IMG/VR virus record: IMGVR_UViG_3300042878_001709
Location: 106,590-126,589 of that record
Strand: one strand, 5' to 3'
Source of the DNA: an uncultured virus (IMG/VR IMGVR_UViG_3300042878_001709)
Lineage: Duplodnaviria; Heunggongvirae; Uroviricota; Caudoviricetes
Length of the DNA stretch: 20,000 nucleotides
The notes below the pieces were generated by a model. That model was not told the DNA's origin and did not search any database. It saw only the letters and a list, made by a program, of their open reading frames with translations. The stretch's first letter is position 1. The number at the start of each line of letters is the position of its first letter. The position numbers and the translations under genes are program-made. This document shows positions 2,590 through 19,256 of the stretch, in pieces.

Positions 2590-5500
2590 ATGCCTATAAA
2601 TAAATTTACAACATTATTAGATCTTTCAAGACAAGCTAAGATAATAACTGGTGAAACTGCAACTTTTGACGGTAAAATACTATCAGGGATACCATTTAGT
2701 GGGTATCCAACAGGTGTTAATACCGCAACAACTGTTTCATTAGGGGTTGTTTCAACGGAAAACGCAGTGTTTAGCGGAAATACAGGAACTACCGTTTTCG
2801 ATGTCTCAAACCCATTATCACCTTATTACAATCCACTTTTTAGTGGGTATACCGCAACCACTTGGACTAATCCTTTATTTTCGGCTACGACTTCGGGGTT
2901 AACATTACCCATTACAATACTGAGTGCGGACACACAAGTGGTTGGTCCGTTTTGGACATTAACACAAACAGGGTATACTGGTGACTATATAATAGGTACA
3001 GAATATACTGGTTATAGTGTAACATATAGTTTTATCAATGTATCTCAATTTAATCCCAATGTATTTAGTGGTGTCACAAGTGCTTCCCAAGAAAACTTTT
3101 CTGCGGGTACCTTAGATTATAAAGGACCGTTAGATTATTTATCATCTAAAGAAAATATATCAGTAGATGGTAGATTAATTACAAATAAAATTACTATAAG
3201 TAATGGTGCTAGTTCAGCGACAACTAATTATGTATTGACTCAAATAGATGATACGGGTAAAGGAGGTTGGAGCTCCGTATCTTCATTACTTTCAGGATCA
3301 TGTTTACCGATAGTTAATTTAGAAACAATAAATGATTGTTCTTCAGGTATCACATTCAATTCGGATGTTACTATAAATGGTGATGTAATTGTAAATGGTT
3401 CTGCCACTACAATAAACACAGAAATTATTAGATCTAAGGATAATAATATAATTTTAAATTATAGTGGAACACATTTAACCGCAATCGGTGGTGGTTTTAC
3501 ACTGGAAGATGGTGTCAGTAATGGTGTCGATTCTAGAATATATTCGGACTCAAACGGTGTTTGGTTATTTGACCCATCATTAAGTGCGAATTCAGGAACA
3601 ATAATTAATTTTTCTGCAGATACAATAGGTTCGTCAGGAGATTGTGTCAATGATTTATATGTATCGAACATACATTCATGCTCCCCATTAAATATAAACC
3701 CTTTAAACGAAGGGGATGTTTATTTTGGTTCCACAAGTGGAGTCACAATTGATGTCACCCATAGTAGGATAGGTATTGGGACTGATTCACCTAATTACCC
3801 ATTACAAATTTTAGGGGGTAATAGTACATTTTATTATGATCCCACATCGTTGGGGGGTGATTCACGAATTAGTGGGAATACAAATCTACCTAGATATACT
3901 GTATCAATTGCACCATATTTGACTAAACCATCTGCAGGAAGTCAATTCGGTATGAGATGTTGGGACGATGCAACTTCTCCCAATTATGGTAAAGTAGGGG
4001 ATACATTTATGTATGCGGGTAATGCGTCAAATGGGTTAAACTTAATTAATTCACCTGGTACAGGTACCGAAGACTATATTAGATTATATGCGGGACAAAC
4101 TGTAAATGGTACGACTCCTGATATACATATACAAGGTAGTGGTGTAACAAGAGGGTACGTTGGTATTAGTACATCTAACCCACAATATTTATTAGATATT
4201 GTTAACACAAATTCTAGACTTTTTTATGATCCAACATCCGTAGGGGGTAGATTTTCAATAAGTGGAAAAACAAATGTTCCTAGATTTGGTGTGGAGGTTC
4301 CACCATATTTAACAAAACCACTGGCAAGTGCTAGTTTAGGTATAAGGGCTTGGGATGATTTATTATATCCAGACTATGGTAATCCGGGAGATGTTCATTT
4401 ATATGCAGGTGTAAACGCTTACGGTTTAAATATTATAAGTGAATACGGTGCTACTAGTGCAGATTATATAAGATTTTATGCTGGTCAAGATGCGTCTTCA
4501 GGAAATACACCAGACATACATATACAAGGTAGTGGTGTAACAAGAGGATATGTTGGTATTGGTACTAAAACACCTACGGAAAGATTAACAGTTAGTGGTA
4601 CATCGTTTTTTAAAACGTCTTCATTAACAACAGGTACATCACCATCTTTTTATTATTTAGACGGAGTTTCAACACCTACGGACACATCTACTATAAAATC
4701 TATATACAAAGAATTTAGACCAACAACCACATCATCATCTAATGTTGTTGGTGACGGTACACTATTATATCCAAACATAACATCACCAACAAATGGGGAA
4801 TTTTATTCAAAGGCAAATCTAATATTATACACAGGTGATTTATCATTATTAAATAGTAATGAAGCTTTAACATCCGAAATTAATGTAGTACAAATTCAAA
4901 CAAACACAGGAACTTACAATGATATAGTTAAAAGTTCGTCATCTGTATTAAGGAATTTGACTGCAGGTGGTACTATAAATGAGTATGTTGGTTTTTGGAT
5001 GAATGGTTTTGATATAACTTTAACCCATAATGGATCAACAAATAATATATATGGGTTTTATATGGATGATCAATCCACTAGATCTGGAAATATCCCCCCA
5101 CCGACAAATAGATGGGGTATATATATAAAAGATGCGGGATATAACTATATTGCAGGTTATTTAGGTATTGGGACTACGACACCATCTGAAAAACTAGATG
5201 TTAGTGGTAAAACAAAAACAACAACTTTACAAGTTACATCTGGAGCAACAAATGGTTATGTTTTAGTTTCAGACTCTATCGGTAACGCCACTTGGCAATC
5301 GGCATCGGGTGCCACATCAGGAGTAACATTTTGGACGGCATCAACAGGTGTAGACGCAATAGTGGTTAAAAATAGTGGATCAGTCGCTAGTGGTTTATTA
5401 TCATTGGCTCAGGGTTATCAGACAACCGCAAGTGGTGATACATCACATGCGGAAGGTTATCAAACAATTGCAGGTGGAAACTTTGGTTCACACGCTGAAG

Positions 5501-8500
5501 GATTCCAAACAACTGCTAGTGGTGATTTTTCACACGCAGAAGGGGCGGATACATTTGCAATTGGGATTATGTCACACTCTGAAGGGTACTTCACAAGTGC
5601 TATCGGTGATTATTCACATGCTGAAGGTAATTTATCAACCGCAAGTGGGGCTACATCACATGCGGAAGGATTTCAAACAATCGCAAGTGGGGTTACATCA
5701 CACGCTGAAGGGGATAATACAATTGCAGGTGGAATTGCTTCACACGCTGAAGGTATACTAACTATTGCATTAGGAAATTATTCACACGCAGAAGGATCTT
5801 CAACTACTTCATCAGGAAGTTATTCACACTCAGAAGGAGCTAGTACTTTGGCATCAGGACAAGGTTCACACGCTGAAGGTGCTATTACAACTGCATCAGG
5901 AACTGCTTCACACGCTGAAGGAGATGGAACTTTGGCATCAGGAACTGCTTCACACGCTGAAGGTTATTATAATATTGCATCAGGAGATTTTTCACACGCT
6001 GAGGGTGGGGCATATTTTGGTAAATTAGGATTACAATCATTTCCAACAAGTGCAACAACTTACTCTTCTCACGCTGAAGGTGTAGGTACATTGGCATCAG
6101 GACAAGGTTCACACGCTGAGGGGTGGTTTGGTATTTCGTCAGGTGCGTGGTCACACTCTGAAGGTCAAGGTACAACATCACTAGGTCAGTATTCTCACTC
6201 AGAAGGTGGTGGGTCTTTAGCAGGAGGTGTTAGTTCACACGCAGAAGGAATAAATACAAACTCTAACGGTACTGGTTCACACGCAGAAGGTGTTGGGACG
6301 TTATCACTAGGTCAATATTCGCACGCAGAAGGTGATGGATCAATATCTTCAGGTAATAGTTCACACGCTGAAGGTGCTTTGACGTTATCTCTAGGTGATT
6401 ATTCACACTCTGAAGGATCGGGAACAACTGCATCAGGACTATATTCACACGCTGAAGGTGTAGAAAATGTGGCATCTGGTACTGCTTCACACGCAGAAGG
6501 TGGGGCATATTTTGGTAAATTCGGATTACAGGCTTTACCAACAAGTGCAACAACTTACTCTTCACACGCTGAAGGGATAGAGACTTTGGCATCAGGACAA
6601 GGTTCACACGCTGAAGGTTATCAGACATCTGCAACTACTTTCTATTCACATTCTGAAGGGGTAAGTACTTTGGCATCAGGACAAAATTCACACGCTGAAG
6701 GTATAGGTACTTTGGCATCAGGACAAGGTTCACACGCTGAGGGGGGAGGTACTTTGGCATCAGGACCTCTTAGTCACGCTGAAGGTGATAATACTTTGGC
6801 ATCAGGACAAAGTTCACACTCTGAAGGATCGGGAACAACTGCATCAGGACCTCGATCACACTCTGAAGGAGGTACAACTATTGCATCAGGAATTTACTCA
6901 CACGCTGAAGGTAAATATACTATTGCATCTGGAGATTCTTCACACTCTGAAGGTTATCAGACAACCGCAAGTGGTGTTTATTCACACGCTGAAGGTTATA
7001 CAAATATTGCGTCAGGAACTGCTTCACACGCAGAAGGTGGGGCATATTTTGGTAAATTAGGATTACAATCATTTCCAACAAGTGCAACAACTTACTCTTC
7101 ACACGCAGAGGGTACAGGTACTTTGGCATCAGGAATAGGTTCACACGCAGAAGGGTTTTTATCTATCGCATCTGGTAATAGTAGCCATGCTGAAGGTTAT
7201 AATACTCAGTCATTAGCGGAAAATTCACACGCTGAAGGTATCAATACTTTGTCATCAGGAAATGGTTCACACGCTGAAGGTCAAAATACTTTGGCATCAG
7301 GAATAGGTTCACACGCTGAAGGACTTTCAACATCTGCCACTACTACATACGCTCACGCTGAAGGAGGAAATACTTTAGCATCGGGGTTATATTCACACGC
7401 TGAAGGAGAGAGTACAATCGCAAATGGGGTTACATCACACGCTGAAGGACTTTCAACAACCGCAAGTGGGGATTACTCACACTCTGAAGGTTATTTTAAT
7501 ATTGCTTCAGGTATTGCTTCACACGCTGAGGGTGGGGCATATTTTGGTAAATCTGGATTAGTGGCAAAACCGACAAGTGCAACAACTTACTCTTCTCACG
7601 CAGAGGGTACAGGTACTTTGGCATCGGGAATTGCTTCACACTCTGAAGGTATCAATAATATATCATCGGGAGAAGGTTCACACGCTGAAGGTAACTATAC
7701 TTTGGCATCAGGAATAGCTTCGCACGCTGAAGGACTTTCAACATCTGCCACTACTTCATACGCTCACGCTGAAGGTGATAATACTTTGGCATCAGGAAAT
7801 GGTTCACACGCTGAAGGTGGTAATACTACTGCTTCAGGAAATGGTTCTCACGCTGAAGGATCAGGTAGTTCTTCATTAGGGATATATTCACACGCTGAAG
7901 GAGGTGGTACAATTGCATACGATAACGGTTCACACTCTGAAGGTCTATCAACTAGAGCAATAGGGTTATATTCACACGCTGAAGGTAACGCAACAAGTGC
8001 AACGACTTCTGGTTCTCACTCTGAAGGCTGGGGCACTATTGCTTATGAAAGTTATCAACACGTATCTGGTAGATGGAATACTACAGGTAATACGAATCAA
8101 TACTTCATTATCGGTAGAGGTACCAATAACGCTTCTAGATCAAACGCATTTAGAGTTGATTCGTCTGGTAACGTTTATGGTGCAGGTGCTACATATAACT
8201 CTGGTGCGGATTACGCTGAATACTTTGAATCTTTATCAGGAGATTCAATACCTTACGGTACAGTAGTCGAATTAGTAGATGATAAAATAAAAGTTTGTGT
8301 TGACGCAAATAACGCTATGGGTGTTATTTCTTCTAACCCTACACTTATCGGAAACAATGAAGGTGGTACTGCTGATGAATGGGTAGGAAAATATGAAAAA
8401 GATGAATGGGGTAGATATATTATGGAAGACTATTCATATGATGCGATAGATTATATGACTGAAAGTGAAACAACCATTTACAAAACAATAACGGAACAAA

Positions 8501-8682
8501 CACCAAAATTAAGTCAAGATTTTAATCCTAATATGACATATATTCCTAGATCTGAAAGACCTGAATGGAATGTTGTTGGGTTAGTCGGTCAAGTAAGGGT
8601 ACTGAAAAATCAACAGATACCAAGTAGGTGGATAAAAATGAAAGATATAAATAATGATATCGCCCTATATTTAATTAGATGA
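2590..8682 (+). CDS. Giant tail fibre/adhesin with YadA-like beta-roll repeats and a C-terminal Peptidase_G2-type autoproteolytic intramolecular chaperone
   Basis: 2030 aa; GIGTxxP fibre motifs; 59 H[AS]EG repeats of mostly 14-aa period. The C-terminus from 8203 (GADYAEYFE...GVISSNP...W.GKY.KD.WG...YIPRSERPEWNVVGLVGQVRV) is typical of phi29 gp12-like chaperone domains. Confidence 0.85.
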   Translation: MPINKFTTLLDLSRQAKIITGETATFDGKILSGIPFSGYPTGVNTATTVSLGVVSTENAVFSGNTGTTVFDVSNPLSPYYNPLFSGYTATTWTNPLFSATTSGLTLPITILSADTQVVGPFWTLTQTGYTGDYIIGTEYTGYSVTYSFINVSQFNPNVFSGVTSASQENFSAGTLDYKGPLDYLSSKENISVDGRLITNKITISNGASSATTNYVLTQIDDTGKGGWSSVSSLLSGSCLPIVNLETINDCSSGITFNSDVTINGDVIVNGSATTINTEIIRSKDNNIILNYSGTHLTAIGGGFTLEDGVSNGVDSRIYSDSNGVWLFDPSLSANSGTIINFSADTIGSSGDCVNDLYVSNIHSCSPLNINPLNEGDVYFGSTSGVTIDVTHSRIGIGTDSPNYPLQILGGNSTFYYDPTSLGGDSRISGNTNLPRYTVSIAPYLTKPSAGSQFGMRCWDDATSPNYGKVGDTFMYAGNASNGLNLINSPGTGTEDYIRLYAGQTVNGTTPDIHIQGSGVTRGYVGISTSNPQYLLDIVNTNSRLFYDPTSVGGRFSISGKTNVPRFGVEVPPYLTKPLASASLGIRAWDDLLYPDYGNPGDVHLYAGVNAYGLNIISEYGATSADYIRFYAGQDASSGNTPDIHIQGSGVTRGYVGIGTKTPTERLTVSGTSFFKTSSLTTGTSPSFYYLDGVSTPTDTSTIKSIYKEFRPTTTSSSNVVGDGTLLYPNITSPTNGEFYSKANLILYTGDLSLLNSNEALTSEINVVQIQTNTGTYNDIVKSSSSVLRNLTAGGTINEYVGFWMNGFDITLTHNGSTNNIYGFYMDDQSTRSGNIPPPTNRWGIYIKDAGYNYIAGYLGIGTTTPSEKLDVSGKTKTTTLQVTSGATNGYVLVSDSIGNATWQSASGATSGVTFWTASTGVDAIVVKNSGSVASGLLSLAQGYQTTASGDTSHAEGYQTIAGGNFGSHAEGFQTTASGDFSHAEGADTFAIGIMSHSEGYFTSAIGDYSHAEGNLSTASGATSHAEGFQTIASGVTSHAEGDNTIAGGIASHAEGILTIALGNYSHAEGSSTTSSGSYSHSEGASTLASGQGSHAEGAITTASGTASHAEGDGTLASGTASHAEGYYNIASGDFSHAEGGAYFGKLGLQSFPTSATTYSSHAEGVGTLASGQGSHAEGWFGISSGAWSHSEGQGTTSLGQYSHSEGGGSLAGGVSSHAEGINTNSNGTGSHAEGVGTLSLGQYSHAEGDGSISSGNSSHAEGALTLSLGDYSHSEGSGTTASGLYSHAEGVENVASGTASHAEGGAYFGKFGLQALPTSATTYSSHAEGIETLASGQGSHAEGYQTSATTFYSHSEGVSTLASGQNSHAEGIGTLASGQGSHAEGGGTLASGPLSHAEGDNTLASGQSSHSEGSGTTASGPRSHSEGGTTIASGIYSHAEGKYTIASGDSSHSEGYQTTASGVYSHAEGYTNIASGTASHAEGGAYFGKLGLQSFPTSATTYSSHAEGTGTLASGIGSHAEGFLSIASGNSSHAEGYNTQSLAENSHAEGINTLSSGNGSHAEGQNTLASGIGSHAEGLSTSATTTYAHAEGGNTLASGLYSHAEGESTIANGVTSHAEGLSTTASGDYSHSEGYFNIASGIASHAEGGAYFGKSGLVAKPTSATTYSSHAEGTGTLASGIASHSEGINNISSGEGSHAEGNYTLASGIASHAEGLSTSATTSYAHAEGDNTLASGNGSHAEGGNTTASGNGSHAEGSGSSSLGIYSHAEGGGTIAYDNGSHSEGLSTRAIGLYSHAEGNATSATTSGSHSEGWGTIAYESYQHVSGRWNTTGNTNQYFIIGRGTNNASRSNAFRVDSSGNVYGAGATYNSGADYAEYFESLSGDSIPYGTVVELVDDKIKVCVDANNAMGVISSNPTLIGNNEGGTADEWVGKYEKDEWGRYIMEDYSYDAIDYMTESETTIYKTITEQTPKLSQDFNPNMTYIPRSERPEWNVVGLVGQVRVLKNQQIPSRWIKMKDINNDIALYLIR
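3766..4548 (+). repeat. Tandem duplication of a ~130-aa module within the fibre gene
   Basis: Units 3766-4155 and 4156-4548 share YDPTS.GG, PYLTKP, WDD...P.YG, DYIR.YAGQ and TPDIHIQGSGVTRG. An identical 32-nt stretch lies at 4123-4154 and 4516-4547. Confidence 0.9.
5401..8070 (+). repeat. Coding tandem array of 42-bp SHAEG units with a higher-order period
   Basis: The core TCACAC(G/T)C(T/A)GAAGG recurs about every 42 nt; 59 H[AS]EG units counted. Four 25-aa long units (GAYFGK.GL...PTSATTYSSHAEG) begin at 6007, 6502, 7039 and 7534. Confidence 0.95.
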
Positions 8683-10439
8683 GTAATATATACCAACATA
8701 ATTTTGACAATTGTTTAAAAATGAGATTAAGTAACAGTGACTACTGGGACTTATTTTTATGTTATGATTGTACAGACGAACAAGATAATGATCAAATATT
8801 AGAGGATTGTATTTTAGTAGACATTGATATTGATAATGATGCGTGTTACTCAGGAAATACTCTTTATAGTTTAACTACTTGGACAGGTGCAACAATCAAT
8901 GGTAGTGGAATCACATTAAATGATATTGGTTTGACGGGTATTGATAATGGTTTTATAATATACGATTGTAATACACCAACCAGTGGGGCAACTTTTTTAT
9001 CATCGTTTACAGGATCATCTTTAACATTAACATCAGCAGATACAAGGTTCTCTATGACTAGAGTTACTGGTTGTACATACGATTACCCAATAGATGTTCT
9101 TACGGACTTAGAGGTAGGTAGATATTCTCAATTATGTGGTGGGTTTTATCAAGGATTCTTTAAATTATCTGATATCACCTATTTCAATGAAATAAGTGAT
9201 AATAAATTTATTTGGCCGTTAGATTGGTTTAGATGTCCTACTATTTGTAGTGGAGACACCGTAACTGATTGTTGTGGTACGGGTGATACAACAGGACAAA
9301 CTTGTACTGTCGATCCGAATAAGGCGTATCAATGTTATTTAGATACAAAACCAATTCCATACAATTATCAAATATTACCTGAAAGATTAGGTGGTTTAGA
9401 TGTCGAATGTTTAGATGGGTGGACGGCAACGTTCTTATTAAATAAAAGTTCCGAATCTTGTGTAGGTAATACACTTAATAATACATACCCTAATAATAAA
9501 GGATTTTTCTTTTATATGGGTACTAGGGCAGAAAATAAGTTTTGGGATTTATTTAGTGGTGAAACTGGGTATACTACCTCATCAGGATATCCTTTACCCC
9601 CACCTGTGATTTCAGAAGAAGTGTTAAATAATAATCCTTTTTTAGTATATCAACCATCAAGTTGTTGTTGTTTTAGTGGTATAACTACAGAAATAACACA
9701 AGAAAAAGATAAAAATGCGGACATTATAGATAACGCATTAGGGTTTAGAATTAAGGATGATGGAAGTATAGGGTTTAGAACTATAATATTGACAGGAGTT
9801 TGTTCGGCAGTTACGGCAACGACAATAGTAGATTGTCATGAACAATGTGGATGTGGGTGTACAGGAACTACTACGGCAACTTCGGTAACCACAAAATATG
9901 TTACAGGAACTAGTATTTATGAATGTTATAGTTCTCCTGGTATTATATCAGAAGATGTGTGGACAAATGTTGCAATAAGGTTTAAACCTTATGAACAATA
10001 TACCCAATGTGAATTAGTGAATAAACCTAGAAGAAAAGGTGTATTAACAGTTTATGTTAATGGATATTTAAAATGGACTTTAGAGGATTTTGATGAGTTT
10101 ATTTTTAGGGAATTAGATGAATATAGAGAAAAACAACAAGGTGTCCCATTTAATTACAGTTTAGGTGGGGGTACTCAAGGATTAATAGAATCTAATACAG
10201 TTAATGGTCCTGATATTAAGGACGAAAACTTAGTACTACAAGAAAATTTTGCTGGTACTTTTGAAGGTGGGATTAGTAAATTTAAATTGTATGGTTGTAG
10301 TTTAGATATTACAACTATAAGAGAAGGATTTAGTAGTTATACACCACCGATACCACCAGATCAAATTCTTATTAATCCGATACTTACTCAGAATGGTGAA
10401 TATATGAGTGTTGGTGGGGATTTTTACTTAATTTTTTAA
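8679..10439 (+). CDS. Cys-rich virion-associated protein with a C-terminal LamG/concanavalin A-like domain
   Basis: ATGA overlap with the fibre gene. WTNVAIRF...LTVYVNGYLK...FEGGISKFKLY..SL is a LamG-like pattern. 27 Cys in 586 aa. Confidence 0.7.
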   Translation: MSNIYQHNFDNCLKMRLSNSDYWDLFLCYDCTDEQDNDQILEDCILVDIDIDNDACYSGNTLYSLTTWTGATINGSGITLNDIGLTGIDNGFIIYDCNTPTSGATFLSSFTGSSLTLTSADTRFSMTRVTGCTYDYPIDVLTDLEVGRYSQLCGGFYQGFFKLSDITYFNEISDNKFIWPLDWFRCPTICSGDTVTDCCGTGDTTGQTCTVDPNKAYQCYLDTKPIPYNYQILPERLGGLDVECLDGWTATFLLNKSSESCVGNTLNNTYPNNKGFFFYMGTRAENKFWDLFSGETGYTTSSGYPLPPPVISEEVLNNNPFLVYQPSSCCCFSGITTEITQEKDKNADIIDNALGFRIKDDGSIGFRTIILTGVCSAVTATTIVDCHEQCGCGCTGTTTATSVTTKYVTGTSIYECYSSPGIISEDVWTNVAIRFKPYEQYTQCELVNKPRRKGVLTVYVNGYLKWTLEDFDEFIFRELDEYREKQQGVPFNYSLGGGTQGLIESNTVNGPDIKDENLVLQENFAGTFEGGISKFKLYGCSLDITTIREGFSSYTPPIPPDQILINPILTQNGEYMSVGGDFYLIF

Positions 10440-10541: not shown

Positions 10542-10549
10542 ATATTTAT
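10542..10549 (+). promoter_or_regulatory. ATATTTAT motif (putative late promoter)
   Basis: 18 nt upstream of ATG 10568, followed by an A-rich leader. Confidence 0.45.
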
Positions 10550-10567: not shown

Positions 10568-11971
10568 ATGGCACTTACTGGAAAAACAATCGGTCAATTA
10601 ACATATCTATCTGGAGTATCAAATGATACATTATTTCCTGTAGAATTAAATGGCGACACATACCATATTAATTATTCATCCATTACAAAAAATGAAGAGG
10701 TAACTTACTCAGAACTTGTAAATAAGATTACGGGTGAGACATTAACACCAAATAGATTCTATTTGATGACTGATTATCAAACGTGTTATGATCAACCAAA
10801 CTTTGATGCTAATGGTTCGGCAATAACAACGGGTAACTATAAAACAGGAACAACAGAACCAATATTATTGCTAGCAATTTCAACAACAGGATTCTCCCCT
10901 ACAGTTTATTCAACACTATATCCACAAGATAAAATCTCTTATGATATTACTTGGAATGCAACTGAAGTTACAGATAATCCTGCTAAAGGTAGAATTACTG
11001 AAAGAATTGACGAGTTTAATAACAGAACAGATTATGACCATAGACAAGTGGTATTTAAACGATACGAAACATCACTTTCAAGTGGTATTTATACAGTAAT
11101 TAAAGATAATGGGAATCCTTACATTGATGATATTCCAACTTTTGGAACAGGTTGTTATTCTAATAAAATAGGGAACTTTTATACCACCTTAGATTTAAAC
11201 AATACAGGTTTTATTTTATCAAATAATATATTTGATGATGATTGTTGGGACAATACAACAGGGGCAGATTTTTATAATAATACAATCGGTTCAATAGTTT
11301 ATGAAAATAAATTTGGGGATTCATGTCATGATAATGTGATAGAAGGAGATGCTTATAACAATGTGGTAAATAACAACTTTAGTTTAAACACAATAGGTGG
11401 TCAATTTTATAATAATACCATATTCAATGGATTTAGATTAAATGTGATAGGGTCACAATTTGAAGGAAATGAAATTTTAAGTGGATTTAGAGAAAATCAA
11501 ACATCTGCAGGATTTGCTAAAAATAGAATTGGTTATGATTTTAGAAATGTAGGTATAACTATTGGAACAAACTTTTTAGATAATCAAATAGGGAACAATT
11601 TTACTGATAATATTGCTATTGGAGATGACTTCCAAAATAATGTGATAGGTAACAATTTTCAAGAAAATAACATTGGAAATGGATTTTTTTCAAATCAAAT
11701 AGGAAACCAATTTACTAATAATACTTGTTATGGTTCATTCCAATGGAATATTGTTAATACCGAAGTTAATAATGTTTGTTTAAGTACGGGTATGTTATTT
11801 GATATCACAACAGTTAATGTATTTAGAAATAAAAATGGTGATGATAGATTATCGTATTACGATGAATTAGATGTTCTAACAATAGAAACATTAACTGAAG
11901 CTCCTTGTTTAGGCGGATTAAACGCATTAGACATACCAGAAAATGATTTGAATTTCGGATTAATATTATAA
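10568..11971 (+). CDS. Putative tail fibre/spike protein with Asn-rich parallel beta-helix repeats
   Basis: N-terminal KTIGQLT and TYSELV...FYLMTDYQT modules resemble those of phage tail proteins. The C-terminal half has many ~9-aa F..N.IG.. repeats (FYNNTIGS, FLDNQIGNN, FQNNVIGNN, FFSNQIGNQ). Confidence 0.7.
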   Translation: MALTGKTIGQLTYLSGVSNDTLFPVELNGDTYHINYSSITKNEEVTYSELVNKITGETLTPNRFYLMTDYQTCYDQPNFDANGSAITTGNYKTGTTEPILLLAISTTGFSPTVYSTLYPQDKISYDITWNATEVTDNPAKGRITERIDEFNNRTDYDHRQVVFKRYETSLSSGIYTVIKDNGNPYIDDIPTFGTGCYSNKIGNFYTTLDLNNTGFILSNNIFDDDCWDNTTGADFYNNTIGSIVYENKFGDSCHDNVIEGDAYNNVVNNNFSLNTIGGQFYNNTIFNGFRLNVIGSQFEGNEILSGFRENQTSAGFAKNRIGYDFRNVGITIGTNFLDNQIGNNFTDNIAIGDDFQNNVIGNNFQENNIGNGFFSNQIGNQFTNNTCYGSFQWNIVNTEVNNVCLSTGMLFDITTVNVFRNKNGDDRLSYYDELDVLTIETLTEAPCLGGLNALDIPENDLNFGLIL

Positions 11972-11998: not shown

Positions 11999-13069
11999 AT
12001 GATACAAGGAATTAGAATAACAAGCACAAATTTATCAGGACTAACGGCAAACATTACTTTTTTACCAACAACTGGTGGAACCTTTAATTTAGGGTCTGAA
12101 GTAATACCATTTAACAATATTTCGGATTATCCTTACGGAACATACGAATTAGACGTTCCATTATATGATAGAACATATGAAATAGTTGTACCAGCACCAT
12201 TAACAGGTCAGAGTGCATATACTGAAACAGTAAGAACTGTTACCGTTGACGGAGGAGTACAACCATTCTCAGGAGCGGTATTATCTGAAGTATGGGGAAC
12301 ATATACAACAAAGTATATCACAAATGAAGGAATACCATCAACTGATATTATTTTAGCTGAAGGTATTTGTTCTGACGATGTTGACGCATCATACTTACCA
12401 AACAATATTGGTCAATGGCCCAATAGTATTAACTCATTTTTAGGTCCATTTATGTCAGGAGGTTTGGCTGGGTTCCCATTTGTTGGGACAGTTGGATACG
12501 GTGCATTCTCAAGTCACGTTACAAACACTGGAACTTTATTTGTCACAAGTATGCCACACATCGGTGTTACTGAAGATGGTCGTTCAGGTAGAATGTTGAG
12601 AAGGGGTAAAGATGATAGTCTTACAGATAATACCTGTGGTGCGGTTTGGGGGGCAATTAATCAAGTTGTCAATGTATTAACCAATGCCCCAAATATAGAA
12701 AATCCACCATTTGACAATGGTAACTATTCTTTTTGGAAATTAACTGATATTTTATGGCCGCACAAATATGCATTAACAGATTTTACTGGTACTTCTGAAG
12801 AAATATATAATAATCAAATGATTTTGGCGACACAAATAATTAGAGACGCCGCATACGATTATATCATTACAAATTTACCGTCACAAACAGAATCGTTTAC
12901 TGAAAATCCAGTTTACTTTTTAAGTGGTATATTTATTAATTCAGATGTTAATGTGGGTACAACACAATTTGAATCGTATGTTGTAGTCGATAAAGTTATG
13001 AAATATGTATTTGATGATCAGTGGTATGATATAACATCAGATTATAAGTTAGGGTTACCAATTGATTAA
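11999..13069 (+). CDS. LCIB/LCIC-family (theta-class) carbonic anhydrase with a ~70-aa N-terminal extra module
   Basis: Family motifs in the expected order: C124-S-D126-D, F.SGGLAGFPFVG.VGYGAFSSHV, P-H187-IGV..DG..G...R.G, T-C213-GA. The putative Zn ligands (Cys/His/Cys) and the Asp are present. Confidence 0.85.
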   Translation: MIQGIRITSTNLSGLTANITFLPTTGGTFNLGSEVIPFNNISDYPYGTYELDVPLYDRTYEIVVPAPLTGQSAYTETVRTVTVDGGVQPFSGAVLSEVWGTYTTKYITNEGIPSTDIILAEGICSDDVDASYLPNNIGQWPNSINSFLGPFMSGGLAGFPFVGTVGYGAFSSHVTNTGTLFVTSMPHIGVTEDGRSGRMLRRGKDDSLTDNTCGAVWGAINQVVNVLTNAPNIENPPFDNGNYSFWKLTDILWPHKYALTDFTGTSEEIYNNQMILATQIIRDAAYDYIITNLPSQTESFTENPVYFLSGIFINSDVNVGTTQFESYVVVDKVMKYVFDDQWYDITSDYKLGLPID

Positions 13070-13081
13070 ATAAATAAAAAA

Positions 13082-13138
13082 ATGGTAACAAAATACATAG
13101 TAGATAACTTAAAAAAACAAATAATAGATATTTATTAA
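13082..13138 (+). pseudogene. 18-codon relic ORF resembling the N-terminus of the next gene
   Basis: MVTKYIVDNLKKQIIDIY* versus MAKTKYIVNNLLGQKI at 13151; it has its own A-rich leader. Confidence 0.55.
13128..13135 (+). promoter_or_regulatory. ATATTTAT motif (putative late promoter)
   Basis: 15 nt upstream of ATG 13151. Confidence 0.45.
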
Positions 13139-13150
13139 TAAAATAAAATT

Positions 13151-13708
13151 ATGGCAAAAACAAAATATATTGTAAATAATTTATTAGGTCAGAAAATTGG
13201 AGGAGAATCATTAATTCCAATGTATAGTCAATCAATAATTTATACAGGAAATCAAATAAATTGTTTAAATGTTAATAGTGGTATGACCCTAACTGAAGTT
13301 GTTGAATCAATTGGTAACACATTTTGTTCGACACCTCCTATTTATACGTGTGGAGACTTTGTATTAATAACTAATCCAATTGGGGAGTGCCAAAACCCGT
13401 TACAATATCTATTTAATCAGTCAATTTTATCTTGGTGTGAAGAACATCCACCAGTAGTTCCTTGTACAAGTAATGTAAATTCTTTAGATTACTTATTCGA
13501 TCAAGTAATTGAAAATTGGAATAACGAACATCCTCCTGTGGTACCTTGTACAAGTAATGTTAATTCTTTAGATTACTTATTTGATCAAATAATTGAAAAT
13601 TGGAATAACGAACATCCGCCATTAGTTCCTTGCACAAGTAATGTAAATTCTTTAGATTACTTATTCGATCAAGTAATTGAAAGTTGGGAAAACCAACAAT
13701 TAGTTTAA
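13151..13708 (+). CDS. Hypothetical Cys-containing protein with three 28-aa C-terminal repeats, probably virion-associated
   Basis: IIYTG...CL....G.TLTEV....C module followed by EHPPVVPCTSNVNSLDYLFDQVIENWNN x3. Confidence 0.75.
   Translation: MAKTKYIVNNLLGQKIGGESLIPMYSQSIIYTGNQINCLNVNSGMTLTEVVESIGNTFCSTPPIYTCGDFVLITNPIGECQNPLQYLFNQSILSWCEEHPPVVPCTSNVNSLDYLFDQVIENWNNEHPPVVPCTSNVNSLDYLFDQIIENWNNEHPPLVPCTSNVNSLDYLFDQVIESWENQQLV
13442..13690 (+). repeat. 84-bp coding tandem repeat, 3 copies
   Basis: Units start at 13442, 13526 and 13610 (GAACATCC...); differences are mostly at third codon positions. Confidence 0.95.
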
Positions 13709-14899: not shown

Positions 14900-17725
14900 A
14901 TGCTTGCTTCAGTAGATGACATTAAAGAATATTTAGAGGGTTACGATGAACAAAAATATATAGTAGGTGTTGAATCGTCTTACTATGAAAACAAAGTTTA
15001 TCTTATCATACACGATCCAGAAAATGGTAAACGTATAGAAAAACATAAGTTCACTCCTTTCTTATGGATGAAGAGTATTGACTTAAGTAAGCTATATGGT
15101 GGAGATAGAAGGGAAATTAGAAACAAAATCAAAGAATATAAAATTAAGTTTATACCATTATCAATAAAAGATGAAAATGATGATACAGTATCACGTTTAG
15201 AAAATGGTTATAAATTTTTAGTTAGATCAAGAGGTACTTATGGGGATTTATTAAATTTTTTCAAAAAGGGAAAGATGGATATATTCTCAGAAGAAAATAG
15301 AAGTAATTTTTTAGCTATCAGTCCTACTGAACAATTTTTAATACAATCAGGTAAAAGACTTTTTAAGGGGATGGATGAATATGATGATGTGCATAGATTT
15401 TCATTTGACTTAGAAACAACTGGATTAGACCCTAAAACTTGTAGGATCTTTCAGGTTGGTATGAAGGATAATAGAGATTTCCAACATGTACTTTCTATAA
15501 ATGGAGATACAGAAGAAGAAATAAACGATAGAGAAGCAGAAGCAATAACAACATTTTTTAAAGTTATTAACCATCTTAAACCAGCAATTATATCTGGATA
15601 TAATTCAGAGAACTTTGACTGGTATTTTATAGTTGAGAGATGTAGGATATTAGGTATTGATATTACAAAAATTGCCAAGACATTAGGAAGTATCCCATTT
15701 TATAGAAAAACTCAAACACTTAAAATGGGTCCTGAAATGGAACATTATGAACAGACACATATGTGGGGGTATAATATTATGGATGTATATCACGCAGTTA
15801 GAAGGGCACAAGCGATTAATTCTTCTATTAAAGAGGCAGGATTAAAATATATTACAAAATACTCCAATGTGGCAAAATCAAATCGAGTTTATATACAAGG
15901 TGATAAGTTAGGTAAGATATATGGAGATACTGAAAATGATTATTGGTTAGACGATAGTAATGGTGAATGGGGTAAAGTTATAGATGATATATTACCAGAA
16001 AATACTATTAAAGTTAAAGGTTGTGATATTGTAGAGAGATATCTTATAGATGACTTATGGGAAACAGAAAAGGTAGATAATATTTTCAATCAAGCAACTT
16101 TTCTTTTATCTAAAGTTTTACCAACATCATTTATGAGATCATCCACAATGGGTACTGCGGCAACATGGAAATTACTTATGTTAGGGTGGTATTATAGAAG
16201 TGGTATTGCAATCCCACATACTATGCCATCTAAAGGGTTTATAGGTGGTTTATCTAGATTATTAGAAGTAGGTTTTAGTCAAAATGTAGTTAAATTTGAC
16301 TTTGCTTCCCTATACCCATCTATTCAGTTGACACATAATGTATTTACTGATTGTGATGTTATGGGTGCAATGAGAGGGTTATTACAATATAACTATGACT
16401 ATAGAAATCTTTATAAAGAATTAAAGAAGAAATATGAGGTTGAGGGTGATTCAGAAAAATCTTCATATTATGATAAAAAACAATTACCGCTTAAAATTCT
16501 TAATAATGGAATGTTCGGTTCTATTTCTGCGCCAAACGTTTATCCTTGGGGTGATTCAGATATGGGTGAAAAAATTACATGTACAGGTAGACAATATCTG
16601 AGACATATGATTAGATTTTTCGCATCAAAAGGATTTAAACCATTAGTGGGTGATACAGATGGATTCAACTTCTCTGTACCAAACGATGTAGATAGATATG
16701 TTTATACGTCAAATGGTAATCATCATTTCAATAAATTAGGTAAAACATATAAAGGAATGTCTGCAGTAGTTTCTGAATATAATGATAAATATATGAAAGG
16801 TGTGATGGGATTAGATGTAGATGAAATATGTTCCGCAACTATTAACTTAGCAAGAAAAAATTACGCAGATTTAATAGATGGTAAAGTTAAATTAGTGGGT
16901 AACTCTATTAAGTCTAAAAAAATGCCAGTTTATATTTCTGAATTTATCGATAAAGGTATCAGACTTCTTTTAGATGGTAACGGATTAGAATTTGTGACAG
17001 AATATTATGAAACAATAGAAATGATTTATAATCAAGAAATACCACTTTCTAAAATTGCCAATAAATCTAGAGTAAGGATATCTTTAGATGAGTACAAAAA
17101 GAAAATGAAAACCACAAATAAATCTGGTGGGTCGATGGCTAGACAAGCTCATATGGAATTAATTATTAATGAAAATTTAAATGTTAATTTAGGCGACACA
17201 ATTTATTATGTAAATACAGGTAGTAAAAAATCACATGGAGATGTTCAGACAAAGGCACATAGTAAATTTACTAAAAAAGAAACTGAACTTTATTATATTA
17301 ATAATGGTAAGATGCCTGAACCCTCAAAAGTGGATATTGTTGTAAATTGTAGATATATACCAAATAATCTTTTAGAAAATGATCCAAATGCGACAGGTGA
17401 ATACAATGTAGAAAGATATTTAGATGCGTTCAATAAAAGAGTAAAACCATTATTAGTATGTTTCGATCCCTCTGTTAGGGAAGATATAATGATAACATCA
17501 CCATTAGAAAGAAAGTATTTTACTGCACAAGAATTAACTTTAACATCAGGTAAACCATTTAACGAAAGTGATCAAGATAAATTAATAGATTTATTAACTA
17601 TAACTGATGAAGAATTAGAATTCTGGAACCGTATAGGTATATCTCCTACATATATGTTCGAGGACTATGGAATTGCAGATGAATTCTCATATGACGTAAA
17701 GACCCAAAGGTCGATAAGTCAATGA
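14900..17725 (+). CDS. polB: Family B DNA polymerase with 3'-5' exonuclease domain
   Basis: ExoI FDLETTG, ExoII GYNSENFDW, ExoIII YLIDD; motif A DFASLYPS, motif B KILNNGMFG, motif C GDTDG, and KKNYA-like RKNYA. No intein apparent. Confidence 0.95.
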   Translation: MLASVDDIKEYLEGYDEQKYIVGVESSYYENKVYLIIHDPENGKRIEKHKFTPFLWMKSIDLSKLYGGDRREIRNKIKEYKIKFIPLSIKDENDDTVSRLENGYKFLVRSRGTYGDLLNFFKKGKMDIFSEENRSNFLAISPTEQFLIQSGKRLFKGMDEYDDVHRFSFDLETTGLDPKTCRIFQVGMKDNRDFQHVLSINGDTEEEINDREAEAITTFFKVINHLKPAIISGYNSENFDWYFIVERCRILGIDITKIAKTLGSIPFYRKTQTLKMGPEMEHYEQTHMWGYNIMDVYHAVRRAQAINSSIKEAGLKYITKYSNVAKSNRVYIQGDKLGKIYGDTENDYWLDDSNGEWGKVIDDILPENTIKVKGCDIVERYLIDDLWETEKVDNIFNQATFLLSKVLPTSFMRSSTMGTAATWKLLMLGWYYRSGIAIPHTMPSKGFIGGLSRLLEVGFSQNVVKFDFASLYPSIQLTHNVFTDCDVMGAMRGLLQYNYDYRNLYKELKKKYEVEGDSEKSSYYDKKQLPLKILNNGMFGSISAPNVYPWGDSDMGEKITCTGRQYLRHMIRFFASKGFKPLVGDTDGFNFSVPNDVDRYVYTSNGNHHFNKLGKTYKGMSAVVSEYNDKYMKGVMGLDVDEICSATINLARKNYADLIDGKVKLVGNSIKSKKMPVYISEFIDKGIRLLLDGNGLEFVTEYYETIEMIYNQEIPLSKIANKSRVRISLDEYKKKMKTTNKSGGSMARQAHMELIINENLNVNLGDTIYYVNTGSKKSHGDVQTKAHSKFTKKETELYYINNGKMPEPSKVDIVVNCRYIPNNLLENDPNATGEYNVERYLDAFNKRVKPLLVCFDPSVREDIMITSPLERKYFTAQELTLTSGKPFNESDQDKLIDLLTITDEELEFWNRIGISPTYMFEDYGIADEFSYDVKTQRSISQ

Positions 17726-18829
17726 TTTGTTTAAATTTTCTGCCTCTAAAGCTTTATTCTCCAATTGTTTTACGTTAGATAATCTTTCTAATCTTAAATC
17801 CAATTGTTCTAATAACTTTAATTGTTCTTCTTTACCTTCATTAAGTAAACTATCAAAATCCATAGTTAACTCAGCGTCTGGTACTTTTAATGCTCCACTA
17901 AATTTACCTCTTACTCTACCTAAAGATTCTTTAAATAATGCAGTTAAATATCTTCTAACCCAAATCTTTGTAGGTTCATTTAAATCAGAGTATCTTAATT
18001 TAGATAATGGTACATCATTAGGTAATTTTATAATGTCAGAGTTTTCTGCTAAACATTTATCTCTATCATCTCCCGATTCATAGTAGTGGTACCAAACTTT
18101 TGTACCCGATATCCCTAATTGCCCACCTTGTAAACCTGCAGATGCAAAAGATATTCTACTACCAGGTATCGGCATAAGATGTAATAATCTAGTACCATTA
18201 GGTCCTGCAGTAACTTTATAAGATAACTCACTTCTTAATAATTTAGATTTTAAACTAAAATCAGCTGCCCTAAGTAATACATCAAAAGCGGGTGCTACAT
18301 AAAATCCACCATTACCTAATCCACCACCTTGTCCCCAACCAGCGTAAGGTACTTGACCAAAACCACCACCAAAACCATAATCACCAAATCCCGCAAATGA
18401 ATATAGAGCGTGATTAGTAGAGTTTGGGGTTAACCATAATATTTCATTTATTTCTCTTCCTGCAGGTATCTGATAAACTTGTTGGTTCCTTATGATAGTC
18501 ACATAATCTTTCTTTAGTTCCCAAGGACCTCTTTGTTGTAACCCTACTTGTTTAGAATACGCATAAGAAAAATTACTTTCAAAATCCAATGATCTTGTTG
18601 TCAATGCGAATGCAATATCAATTTTATCTGCTTGTTTCCCTAATACTGAAGACCATTGGTTTTCTATCAACCAATCTTGTACTCTTTGAGCATAATCCTC
18701 AATTGCGGTTTCTAAAAGGGAATTCATCTGATCCCAATCTAACTCAATTTTTCGAATTGGTGCACCTAATCTATGTTTTATTTGAGTAAATAATTCATTT
18801 TTTAAGTCATCATTTAAATAATTTGGCAT
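17687..18829 (-). CDS. Neck/head-completion protein, T4 gp13-like
   Basis: N-terminal IKHRLGAPIRKIELDWDQM...AIEDY and C-terminal WVRRYLTALFKESLGRVRGKF.G...L..EGKEE..KL resemble gp13 neck proteins; Gly/aromatic-rich central insert. Confidence 0.8.
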   Translation of the reverse strand: MPNYLNDDLKNELFTQIKHRLGAPIRKIELDWDQMNSLLETAIEDYAQRVQDWLIENQWSSVLGKQADKIDIAFALTTRSLDFESNFSYAYSKQVGLQQRGPWELKKDYVTIIRNQQVYQIPAGREINEILWLTPNSTNHALYSFAGFGDYGFGGGFGQVPYAGWGQGGGLGNGGFYVAPAFDVLLRAADFSLKSKLLRSELSYKVTAGPNGTRLLHLMPIPGSRISFASAGLQGGQLGISGTKVWYHYYESGDDRDKCLAENSDIIKLPNDVPLSKLRYSDLNEPTKIWVRRYLTALFKESLGRVRGKFSGALKVPDAELTMDFDSLLNEGKEEQLKLLEQLDLRLERLSNVKQLENKALEAENLNKSLTYRPLGLYVI

Positions 18830-18884: not shown

Positions 18885-19256
18885 ATGAAAGAGGAACTAG
18901 TAATAAAATTTGTCGGAATGCAACAACAGTTTAGAGTATTACATTGGCAAACTAAATCATATGCAAAACATAATGCCTATGGTAGTATTTATGATTCATT
19001 AGACGATTTAATCGATGGATTTATCGAAACGTATATGGGTAAATATGGTAGAGTATCTTTTGAAAGTGGTGAGGGTAACATTATATTAAAAAATACTGAT
19101 ACATTAGATTTAAATTCATTTATAAAAGAAAATATTTCTTGGTTAAAGAGTTTGAGTGAAAAACTTAATTCCGAAAACGATAGTGACCTTTTAAATATGA
19201 GAGATGAAGTTATGGCTGAATTAAATAAATTAAGATACTTGTTGTCGTTAAAATAA
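18885..19256 (+). CDS. Ferritin/Dps-like four-helix protein (DUF5856-like)
   Basis: LHWQTKSYAKHNAYGSIYDSLDDLIDGFIETYMGKYGR parallels the Dps HW...H...Y...D...E ferroxidase pattern; ends in NKLRYLLSLK. Confidence 0.75.
   Translation: MKEELVIKFVGMQQQFRVLHWQTKSYAKHNAYGSIYDSLDDLIDGFIETYMGKYGRVSFESGEGNIILKNTDTLDLNSFIKENISWLKSLSEKLNSENDSDLLNMRDEVMAELNKLRYLLSLK

Follow-up and report, generated by a model that had tools for sequence, protein, structure and literature searches.

A lake-water phage gene for an LCIB/theta-type carbonic anhydrase that is probably displayed on the virion

The carbonic anhydrase gene and its neighbors

The DNA analyzed here (the window) is a stretch of 20,000 nucleotides that forms the end of the linear virus record IMGVR_UViG_3300042878_001709, which is 126,589 bases long, with 29% G+C and an estimated completeness of 39%. 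Terminase, T4-like portal, protease, and capsid genes are present in this record, and 21 of the 24 listed runs containing it are lake-water DNA. The host is probably a member of the Bacteroidota, judging from Shine-Dalgarno-like sites before only 5 of 111 genes and from the nearest cellular relative of the enzyme described below, a Chitinophagaceae MAG protein. The best capsid matches include Flavobacterium phage immuto and a Microcystis phage. The genes and the motif of the window on which the analysis centered were as follows.

2590..8682, plus strand: fiber-like protein of 2030 aa with YadA-head-like repeats and a Peptidase_G2 autocleavage domain (PF11962, E = 1.7e-35; phrog_25468; phrog_4775, pre-neck appendage)
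8679..10439, plus strand: low-charge protein of 586 aa, rich in [ST]GxT (open reading frame without a family match)
10543..10549, plus strand: TATTTAT motif, by motif counts a candidate late promoter for the upstream gene and, by read-through, for the carbonic anhydrase gene
10568..11971, plus strand: low-charge repeat protein of 467 aa (the upstream gene), beta-helix-like by eye, of a family with TATTTAT in 16 of 16 cases
11999..13069, plus strand: LCIB/theta-type carbonic anhydrase (CA) gene, encoding protein P0001 of 356 aa (open reading frame, Pfam, and PDB sequence matches)
13151..13708, plus strand: low-charge protein of 185 aa downstream of the CA, with its own TATTTAT at 13129 (open reading frame and motif)
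17687..18829, minus strand: head-tail adaptor (neck) gene, a context marker (phrog_211, E = 6.7e-10; TATTTAT in 22 of 22 relatives)

The 185-aa protein contains three tandem repeats of ~26 aa, and a DUF5856 protein (phrog_858) is encoded at 18885-19256 of the window.

The initial annotation had placed the CA gene in a fiber gene cluster, 27 nt behind a "beta-helix" gene, on the same strand and without a visible terminator. Spacing and strand were correct (the upstream gene ends at 11971), and none of the three terminator-like sites found between 8000 and 15200 lies between the two genes. As to the beta-helix label, the repeats on which it was solely based are there, but the protein has no Pfam or PHROG match. 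The description as a fiber cluster holds in this window, whereas the cluster of relatives is less purely structural, with glycosyltransferase, pirin, and PolB genes adjoining the CA. Across related loci, 27 of 54 immediate upstream and 25 of 59 immediate downstream neighbors of the CA were low-charge proteins, compared to 96 of 504 further off. The [ST]GxT motifs, said to be common to the CA and the structural proteins next to it, were more frequent than in shuffled sequences in the neighbors (24 versus 8.0, 12 versus 1.1, and 3 versus 0.9), while the signal in the CA protein alone was weak (2 versus 0.6).

Several other genes were seen at related loci. A gene for an Fe/Mn superoxide dismutase (SOD; L001:17823-19400) adjoins the neck gene, has TATTTAT in 13 of 15 copies, and, from its sequence context, may encode another late or packaged enzyme. 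L005:3390-6782, L009, and L014 encode, upstream of the fiber genes, a large low-charge protein with a C-terminal papain-like C1 peptidase after Pro/Thr linkers. The phage genome itself has, at G000:C1:4909-6894 and 30508-32577, genes for a CUB and GEVED protein with an apparent signal peptide and for a PAS histidine kinase together with a response regulator.

P0001 has the predicted fold and the active-site residues of the LCIB/theta family

The assignment to the LCIB/theta-CA family was borne out. Pfam LCIB_C_CA (PF18599) matched residues 103 to 330 of P0001 with an E value of 1.3e-30 and 106.8 bits (cut-off 25), and seven of seven matches in a PDB sequence search were LCIB-family proteins. 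At a threshold of E ≤ 0.001, 206 relatives were found; identity was 75 to 94% for the best 120. Structure prediction agreed: an AF2 model of residues 68 to 356 (pLDDT 89.7, pTM 0.90) matched LCIB structures, with a Foldseek E value of 6e-15 to 5b5y. LCIB-family chains made up the top 8 Foldseek and the top 6 VIA rows, at Z scores of 19.7 to 26.8 versus 12.2 for the next row and about 12 for beta-CAs; for PtLCIB4 and 6kfs, VIA gave Z scores of 26.4 to 26.8 and an rmsd of 2.2 to 2.3 over about 240 residues. The sequence motifs were found where they had been claimed to lie (CSDD at 124, GGLAGFPFVG at 154, PHIG at 186, with H187, CGA at 213, SGLT at 13, and TGGT at 25), and the gene could be divided as follows.

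11999..12199, plus strand: mobile N-terminal module, aa 1-67, a probable virion anchor (module profile matches; dN/dS 0.225)
12200..13066, plus strand: catalytic domain, aa 68-356 (Pfam match on aa 103-330; AF2 model; dN/dS 0.20)
12368..12376, plus strand: C124-S125-D126, presumed first zinc ligand, equivalent of PtLCIB4 S47, and presumed catalytic Asp (C124 and D126 kept in 60 of 62 viral copies)
12404..12421, plus strand: N-I-G-Q-x-P segment, conserved in the phage clade, seldom seen in cellular homologues (column frequencies)
12515..12517, plus strand: H173, equivalent of PtLCIB4 H88 (62 of 62 viral copies)
12557..12559, plus strand: H187, presumed second zinc ligand (62 of 62 viral copies)
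12599..12601, plus strand: R201, conserved active-site Arg (62 of 62 viral copies and 75 of 75 genome-collection domains)
12635..12637, plus strand: C213, presumed third zinc ligand (62 of 62 viral copies)

From what is known of beta- and theta-CAs, we take C124, H187, and C213 to be the zinc ligands and D126 the catalytic Asp. Together with H173 and R201, these residues were kept in 60 to 62 of the 62 different viral domains, with gaps in the two exceptions, and the six are invariant at 36 to 89% identity and across many carriers. The residues changed in the PtLCIB4 mutants S47R and H88A, mapped on 5b60 and 5b5z, correspond to S125 and H173. The dN/dS values of 0.20 for the catalytic domain and 0.225 for the module, from 23 sequences, indicate purifying selection.

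Behind the CSDD motif, the phage clade has a segment of its own. Among 51 phage-clade and 58 other sequences, the frequencies were 0.98 versus 0.00 for N136, 1.0 versus 0.14 for G138, 0.84 versus 0.07 for Q139, and 0.96 versus 0.12 for P141. This N-x-G-Q-x-P segment need not signal a new substrate, since PtLCIB4 has G-E at the matching place. According to a review, some LCIB proteins (of the Chlamydomonas LCIB family) are inactive although their zinc motif is intact (PMC5876011), and activity of the phage CA, to which its intact predicted site points, is therefore only likely. By analogy with PtLCIB4, the enzyme would be expected to dimerize.

The N-terminal module is found on unrelated proteins

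The initial annotation had set apart some 70 N-terminal residues, and residues 1 to 67 do form a separate unit that also occurs on unrelated proteins. When these residues were searched alone for fusions, their profile matched 444 proteins of 350 to 2000 aa. The best 120 of these comprised 40 CAs and 80 other proteins, namely 32 with a DUF5122 propeller, 2 with a LamG lectin domain, 1 with PF27998, and 45 without a Pfam domain. The module was N-terminal in all 79 non-CA partners checked, was followed by a Pro/Thr linker in 57 of them, and was joined to proteins of low charge (K+E+R median 0.063, never above 0.10). These partners may be virion-surface-type proteins. At viral loci, it was also found nearly alone or on proteins of 667 to 910 aa, and one copy is present in this 39%-complete genome. 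Searches of Pfam, PHROG, PDB sequences, and Atlas gave no match for the module, nor did a single-sequence search of longer proteins, and a full-length CA model built from close relatives was poor (pLDDT 48.6). Asked whether it belongs to ordinary cellular theta-CAs, the bacterial theta-CA loci fetched, with proteins mostly of about 231 aa, lacked it. Weak matches of the module and of leaders in immuto (E values of 0.002 to 0.003 within a set of 53 proteins) were set aside.

Phage CAs form one clade mounted on different carriers

A wider-alignment scan of viral contigs confirmed 151 stretches, and 80 loci were kept. In a 55-taxon tree that included cellular CAs, all 33 phage-type sequences formed one clade (UFBoot 100) with a stem of 0.65 substitutions per site; 15 of the 33 are database proteins placed by similarity and come from no known viral contig. 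The same clade was recovered in a 109-taxon FastTree (support 0.998), and the nearest cellular branch was the Chitinophagaceae MAG protein (L108, UFBoot 97). The clade spans at least four phage groups, crAss-like phages included. The CAs of one phage group fall into two distinct subclades, and one of these has its place among the crAss-like copies; this suggests transfer of the CA between phage groups. L102, a 1571-base contig in a bacterial MAG, has a phage-clade CA with a crAss-type leader and is probably a piece of phage DNA that binning placed in the MAG.

Apart from leaderless copies, about ten different carriers bear a phage-clade CA. In addition to the aa 1-67 module of P0001, the CA was found inside a core protein of roughly 500 aa encoded near the capsid genes, where it replaces, in frame, a 9-residue SGxTG loop. 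This insertion occurs in 2 of 62 loci with a measurable segment (80 fetched), with flanks 91 to 92% identical to a CA-free copy; the insertion loci are L061:7644-9974, L062, and L085, and the CA-free orthologue is G000:C1:83430-84836. The core protein had no Pfam, PHROG, or PDB match and fell into virus-only Atlas clusters, with a CBM96-like lead at 14% of members. Variable loops, such as the core-protein loop of L184-L263, are also where [ST]GxT is located, and many glycosyltransferase genes lie close by; from its sequence setting, [ST]GxT is a possible glycosylation site of virion proteins.

A third carrier is a leader common to 17 non-CA proteins of low charge. Three of the six partners tested are phrog_25468 fibers and one has YadA-head repeats, and at one locus with this leader (L270) the CA lies between the capsid and head-tail adaptor genes. 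The leader of L065, where the CA is located between the neck block and the tail sheath, is common to three neighboring proteins. In crAss-like phages, the CA has a short leader and was found downstream of a crAss-type capsid gene (L099); for two of the four such leaders tested, one non-CA protein was weakly matched. For this leader, a Cellulophaga "structural protein" of 1957 aa also came up but was discarded, as the match had an E value of 2 and fell in the protein's middle part. The sixth carrier is a C-terminal extension common to low-charge neighbors, and for four further leaders, none of 904 ORFs gave a match outside the CAs. A related fiber-base protein carries a C1 peptidase. In the fourth phage group (five loci), a long-leader CA and a leaderless CA stand in tandem (L088:7605-9729 and, at about 5000-7050, L301-L304), with ATAAATA upstream in four of five; by analogy with LCIB/LCIC, the pair is possibly an anchored heterodimer. 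The CA is not part of a structural block at L077, L088, or L301-L304. A search of 50,697 GenBank phage records with P0001, the inserted CA, the core protein, and two of the leaders came back empty, and protein P0134 gave one match only, with an E value of 0.7.

The phage CAs are poor in charged residues

Low charge is a mark of exposed virion proteins. Among the 126 ORFs with 100 aa or more (median K+E+R fraction 0.204), only one falls below the 0.081 of P0001, and the fiber proteins beside P0001 have 0.083 to 0.109. Over homologous columns, 32 phage-clade loci had 0.052 to 0.097, compared to 0.118 to 0.191 for 23 bacterial loci, so that the charge content of the phage-clade CAs is half that of the bacterial homologues and matches that of the fiber proteins. 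Of 19 phage-clade database proteins, two were exceptional at about 0.18, and 35 other database proteins had 0.092 to 0.179. The cell-like value of 0.178 was found for P0125 and P0143; P0125 had no locus in the viral contigs. Other phage enzymes are normally charged (thymidylate synthase, 0.19; PolB family, 0.22).

A motif common to structural genes suggests late expression

The sequence TATTTAT, which occurs in the window at 2569, 10543, 13129, and 14464, as well as genome-wide and in L298-L300, lies 10 to 40 nt before start codons. It precedes 50 of the 111 genes of this genome (4.3 expected), those for terminase, portal, protease, adaptor, and fibers included. Across related loci, it was found before 22 of 22 adaptor genes and 16 of 16 genes for the upstream repeat protein, compared to 1 of 30 PolB genes, 1 of 9 helicase genes, and 0 of 23 and 0 of 17 members of two glycosyltransferase-type families; the class does include non-structural genes, with SOD at 13 of 15. 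In cultured Flavobacterium phage immuto, counted over annotated genes among 53 picked from three regions, TATTTAT stands before 8 of 15 structural genes and 0 of 15 replication or metabolic genes. We take the motif to be the reverse complement of the T4-type ATAAATA and regard it as a candidate late promoter. No description of such a role was found in the literature search, and a sigma-70 promoter scan stayed at chance level (50 versus 50.1 expected).

An upstream ORF was present for 33 CA genes. TATTTAT lies directly before 14 of these genes, and 12, including the one in this window, stand behind a gene that has it; four were not assessable and three lie behind a motif-less pirin gene, making 26 of 29 assessable genes positive. 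The pattern suggests that the CA is expressed late, with the structural genes. In RNA runs, short pieces of relatives covered the CA gene in one sediment library only, where DNA carry-over is possible, and these reads were not counted as a sign of expression.

Proposed role and alternatives

The explanation that we favor overall, at a probability of roughly 0.5, is a late-made theta-CA clipped onto the virion that converts CO2 and bicarbonate. The phage would encode a theta/LCIB-type zinc CA with an intact active site and make it late in infection, and the aa 1-67 module would clip it onto the outside of the particle, with interconversion of CO2 and bicarbonate as its predicted reaction there. 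The outer virion surface is quite probably the location of this late-made protein. Display is likely in view of the mobile module with its surface-type partners, the repeated grafting, the fiber-like composition, and the structural-gene motif. Against display stand the mixed neighbors of the CA in relatives, the CA copies that are not in structural blocks, the three CA genes behind a motif-less pirin gene, the non-structural members of the motif class, the leaders that matched no non-CA protein, the cell-like charge of P0125 and P0143, and the lack of any match among the GenBank phage records. The enzyme most likely still hydrates CO2, since its pocket is no different from that of the cellular enzymes, and we give about even odds to the enzyme being on the virion and also still hydrating CO2. 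Since bulk water is near carbonate equilibrium, such an enzyme would be effective only where the particle meets local disequilibrium, most plausibly at carbonate mineral or in dense cell aggregates. CA is reported to speed calcite dissolution, and the benefit might consist in freeing particles from calcite or etching the crust around host cells, rather than in feeding host metabolism; this is the most speculative part of the proposal. A wider picture is tentative and, in our judgment, rather doubtful: unrelated freshwater phage groups would swap an old phage-specific CA horizontally and mount it via at least ten carriers (leaders, loop insertion, and tandem pairs in which an anchored subunit holds a leaderless partner), and free virions would catalyze carbonate chemistry, dissolving or nucleating calcite.

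Handling of pH or CO2 at the host surface, as proposed in the initial annotation, is physically weak. A diffusion estimate gave a CO2 excess of 0.007 to 0.23 μM at a cell respiring 0.3 to 10 fmol C per hour, which makes sensing or acidifying the host surface implausible; the idea that virions sense the CO2 of respiring hosts was dropped on the same estimate. A free virion should gain little from CO2 hydration, and this small benefit is one argument for a virion-borne CA whose zinc site acts on another target, by ester or carbamate hydrolysis or anion binding at the host envelope or matrix, as an accessory receptor-binding or matrix-opening enzyme. Lectin and propeller domains on the same carriers, the C1 peptidase on the related fiber-base protein, and the clade-specific segment after CSDD would suit such a function as well. 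A diatom theta-CA may have esterase activity, which would also count in its favor; our literature search found no paper on it. We nevertheless consider a changed target unlikely, as the core of the pocket has the residues of the cellular enzymes, of which some are encoded directly behind PEP carboxylase (3 of 3 tested), and PtLCIB4 has G-E at the place of the segment.

Less probable still is a late enzyme that stays off the virion and supplies bicarbonate or buffers pH inside the infected cell, with leaders that are incidental or tether it to assembly sites. A cytoplasmic enzyme needs no repeated fusion to fiber-type leaders and no insertion into a core-protein loop, thymidylate synthase (0.19) and PolB (0.22) keep normal charge while that of the CA is halved, and metabolic genes are without TATTTAT. 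These observations weigh against the adjacency of bacterial homologues to PEP carboxylase, the SOD within the late motif class, the CA copies that are leaderless or outside structural blocks, and the CAs listed as auxiliary genes in two reports (PMC13037468; 10.64898/2026.05.02.722434). The initial annotation had also raised the possibility of a CA fold co-opted as a purely structural domain, which is unlikely in view of the invariant catalytic residues. An inactive fold that serves the virion as a spacer or decoration would have a parallel in the inactive Chlamydomonas LCIB-family proteins with their intact zinc motif (PMC5876011), but with six invariant active-site residues and the S47 and H88 equivalents kept, we regard it as very improbable.

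The preferred reading, a displayed and active CA, would matter in several respects. Enzymes of phage particles are known mainly as polymer-degrading, and a CA among them would, if true, be a new job for an extracellular virion; a gene scored as an "auxiliary carbon-metabolism gene" would then not act in host metabolism. The repeated independent grafting of the CA implies that selection for it has lasted. On large phages with probable Bacteroidota hosts, the 67-residue module and the tolerant core-protein loop could be natural display handles. As the small CA domain has a good model and is easily expressed, its activity, substrate, and effect on calcite are directly testable. P0001 is a real member of a known enzyme family, in a location that is probably new.

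Comparison with known systems

The phage CA resembles two LCIB-family theta-CAs with a beta-CA-like fold, PtLCIB4 from Phaeodactylum tricornutum and the LCIB_C_CA protein in PDB entry 6kfs, in its modelled fold, in the Cys/His/Cys, Asp, and Arg residues, and in the S47 and H88 equivalents. They are only about 21% identical to it, and the phage CA differs by its mobile module, half the charged residues, and the post-CSDD segment. Bacterial theta-CAs, mostly from Bacteroidota, likewise have the family and the catalytic residues in common with the phage CA, but are mostly single-domain proteins of ~231 aa with cytoplasm-type composition, encoded in a metabolic operon, and at most about 38% identical over the best segments. 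In three of three tested loci (L112:2356-5870, L126, and L133; Bacteroidota MAGs, Prolixibacteraceae-type), the bacterial gene stands directly behind that for PEP carboxylase. This pairing fits an ordinary bicarbonate-supplying role of the cellular family, and the two are likely a bicarbonate-supply pair.

Among viruses, a giant virus (PMC13037468) and a Nitrosospira temperate phage (10.64898/2026.05.02.722434) have CAs that were classed as auxiliary genes; in the passages concerned, they are interpreted as intracellular and their class is not stated. Giant-virus CAs in BFVD matched the phage CA only weakly (best E = 0.005). The literature searched, in which subscription journals are largely absent, held no description of a phage LCIB/theta-CA or of a virion-borne CA. 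Moraphages, as described in the main text of PMC12619734, are similar in being large fresh- or brackish-water phages with a T4-like capsid, neck protein, PolB, glycosyltransferases, and predicted Bacteroidota hosts; that main text does not contain the word "carbonic". Immuto is likewise a large phage with a T4-like capsid, neck protein, glycosyltransferases, the TATTTAT motif, and a known Bacteroidota host, but has no CA match.

A classical auxiliary metabolic gene is host-like, unfused, and nested among host sequences, whereas the phage CA is fused, forms its own long-stem clade, and has a shifted composition. Virion-displayed tailspike depolymerases and esterases combine an anchor with a swappable catalytic domain and act on host polymers. 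The phage CA resembles them in its anchor-plus-enzyme modularity, with leaders common to fiber and lectin proteins and a late-type context, and differs in that they are trimers with host-polymer substrates, while the phage CA is a predicted dimer.
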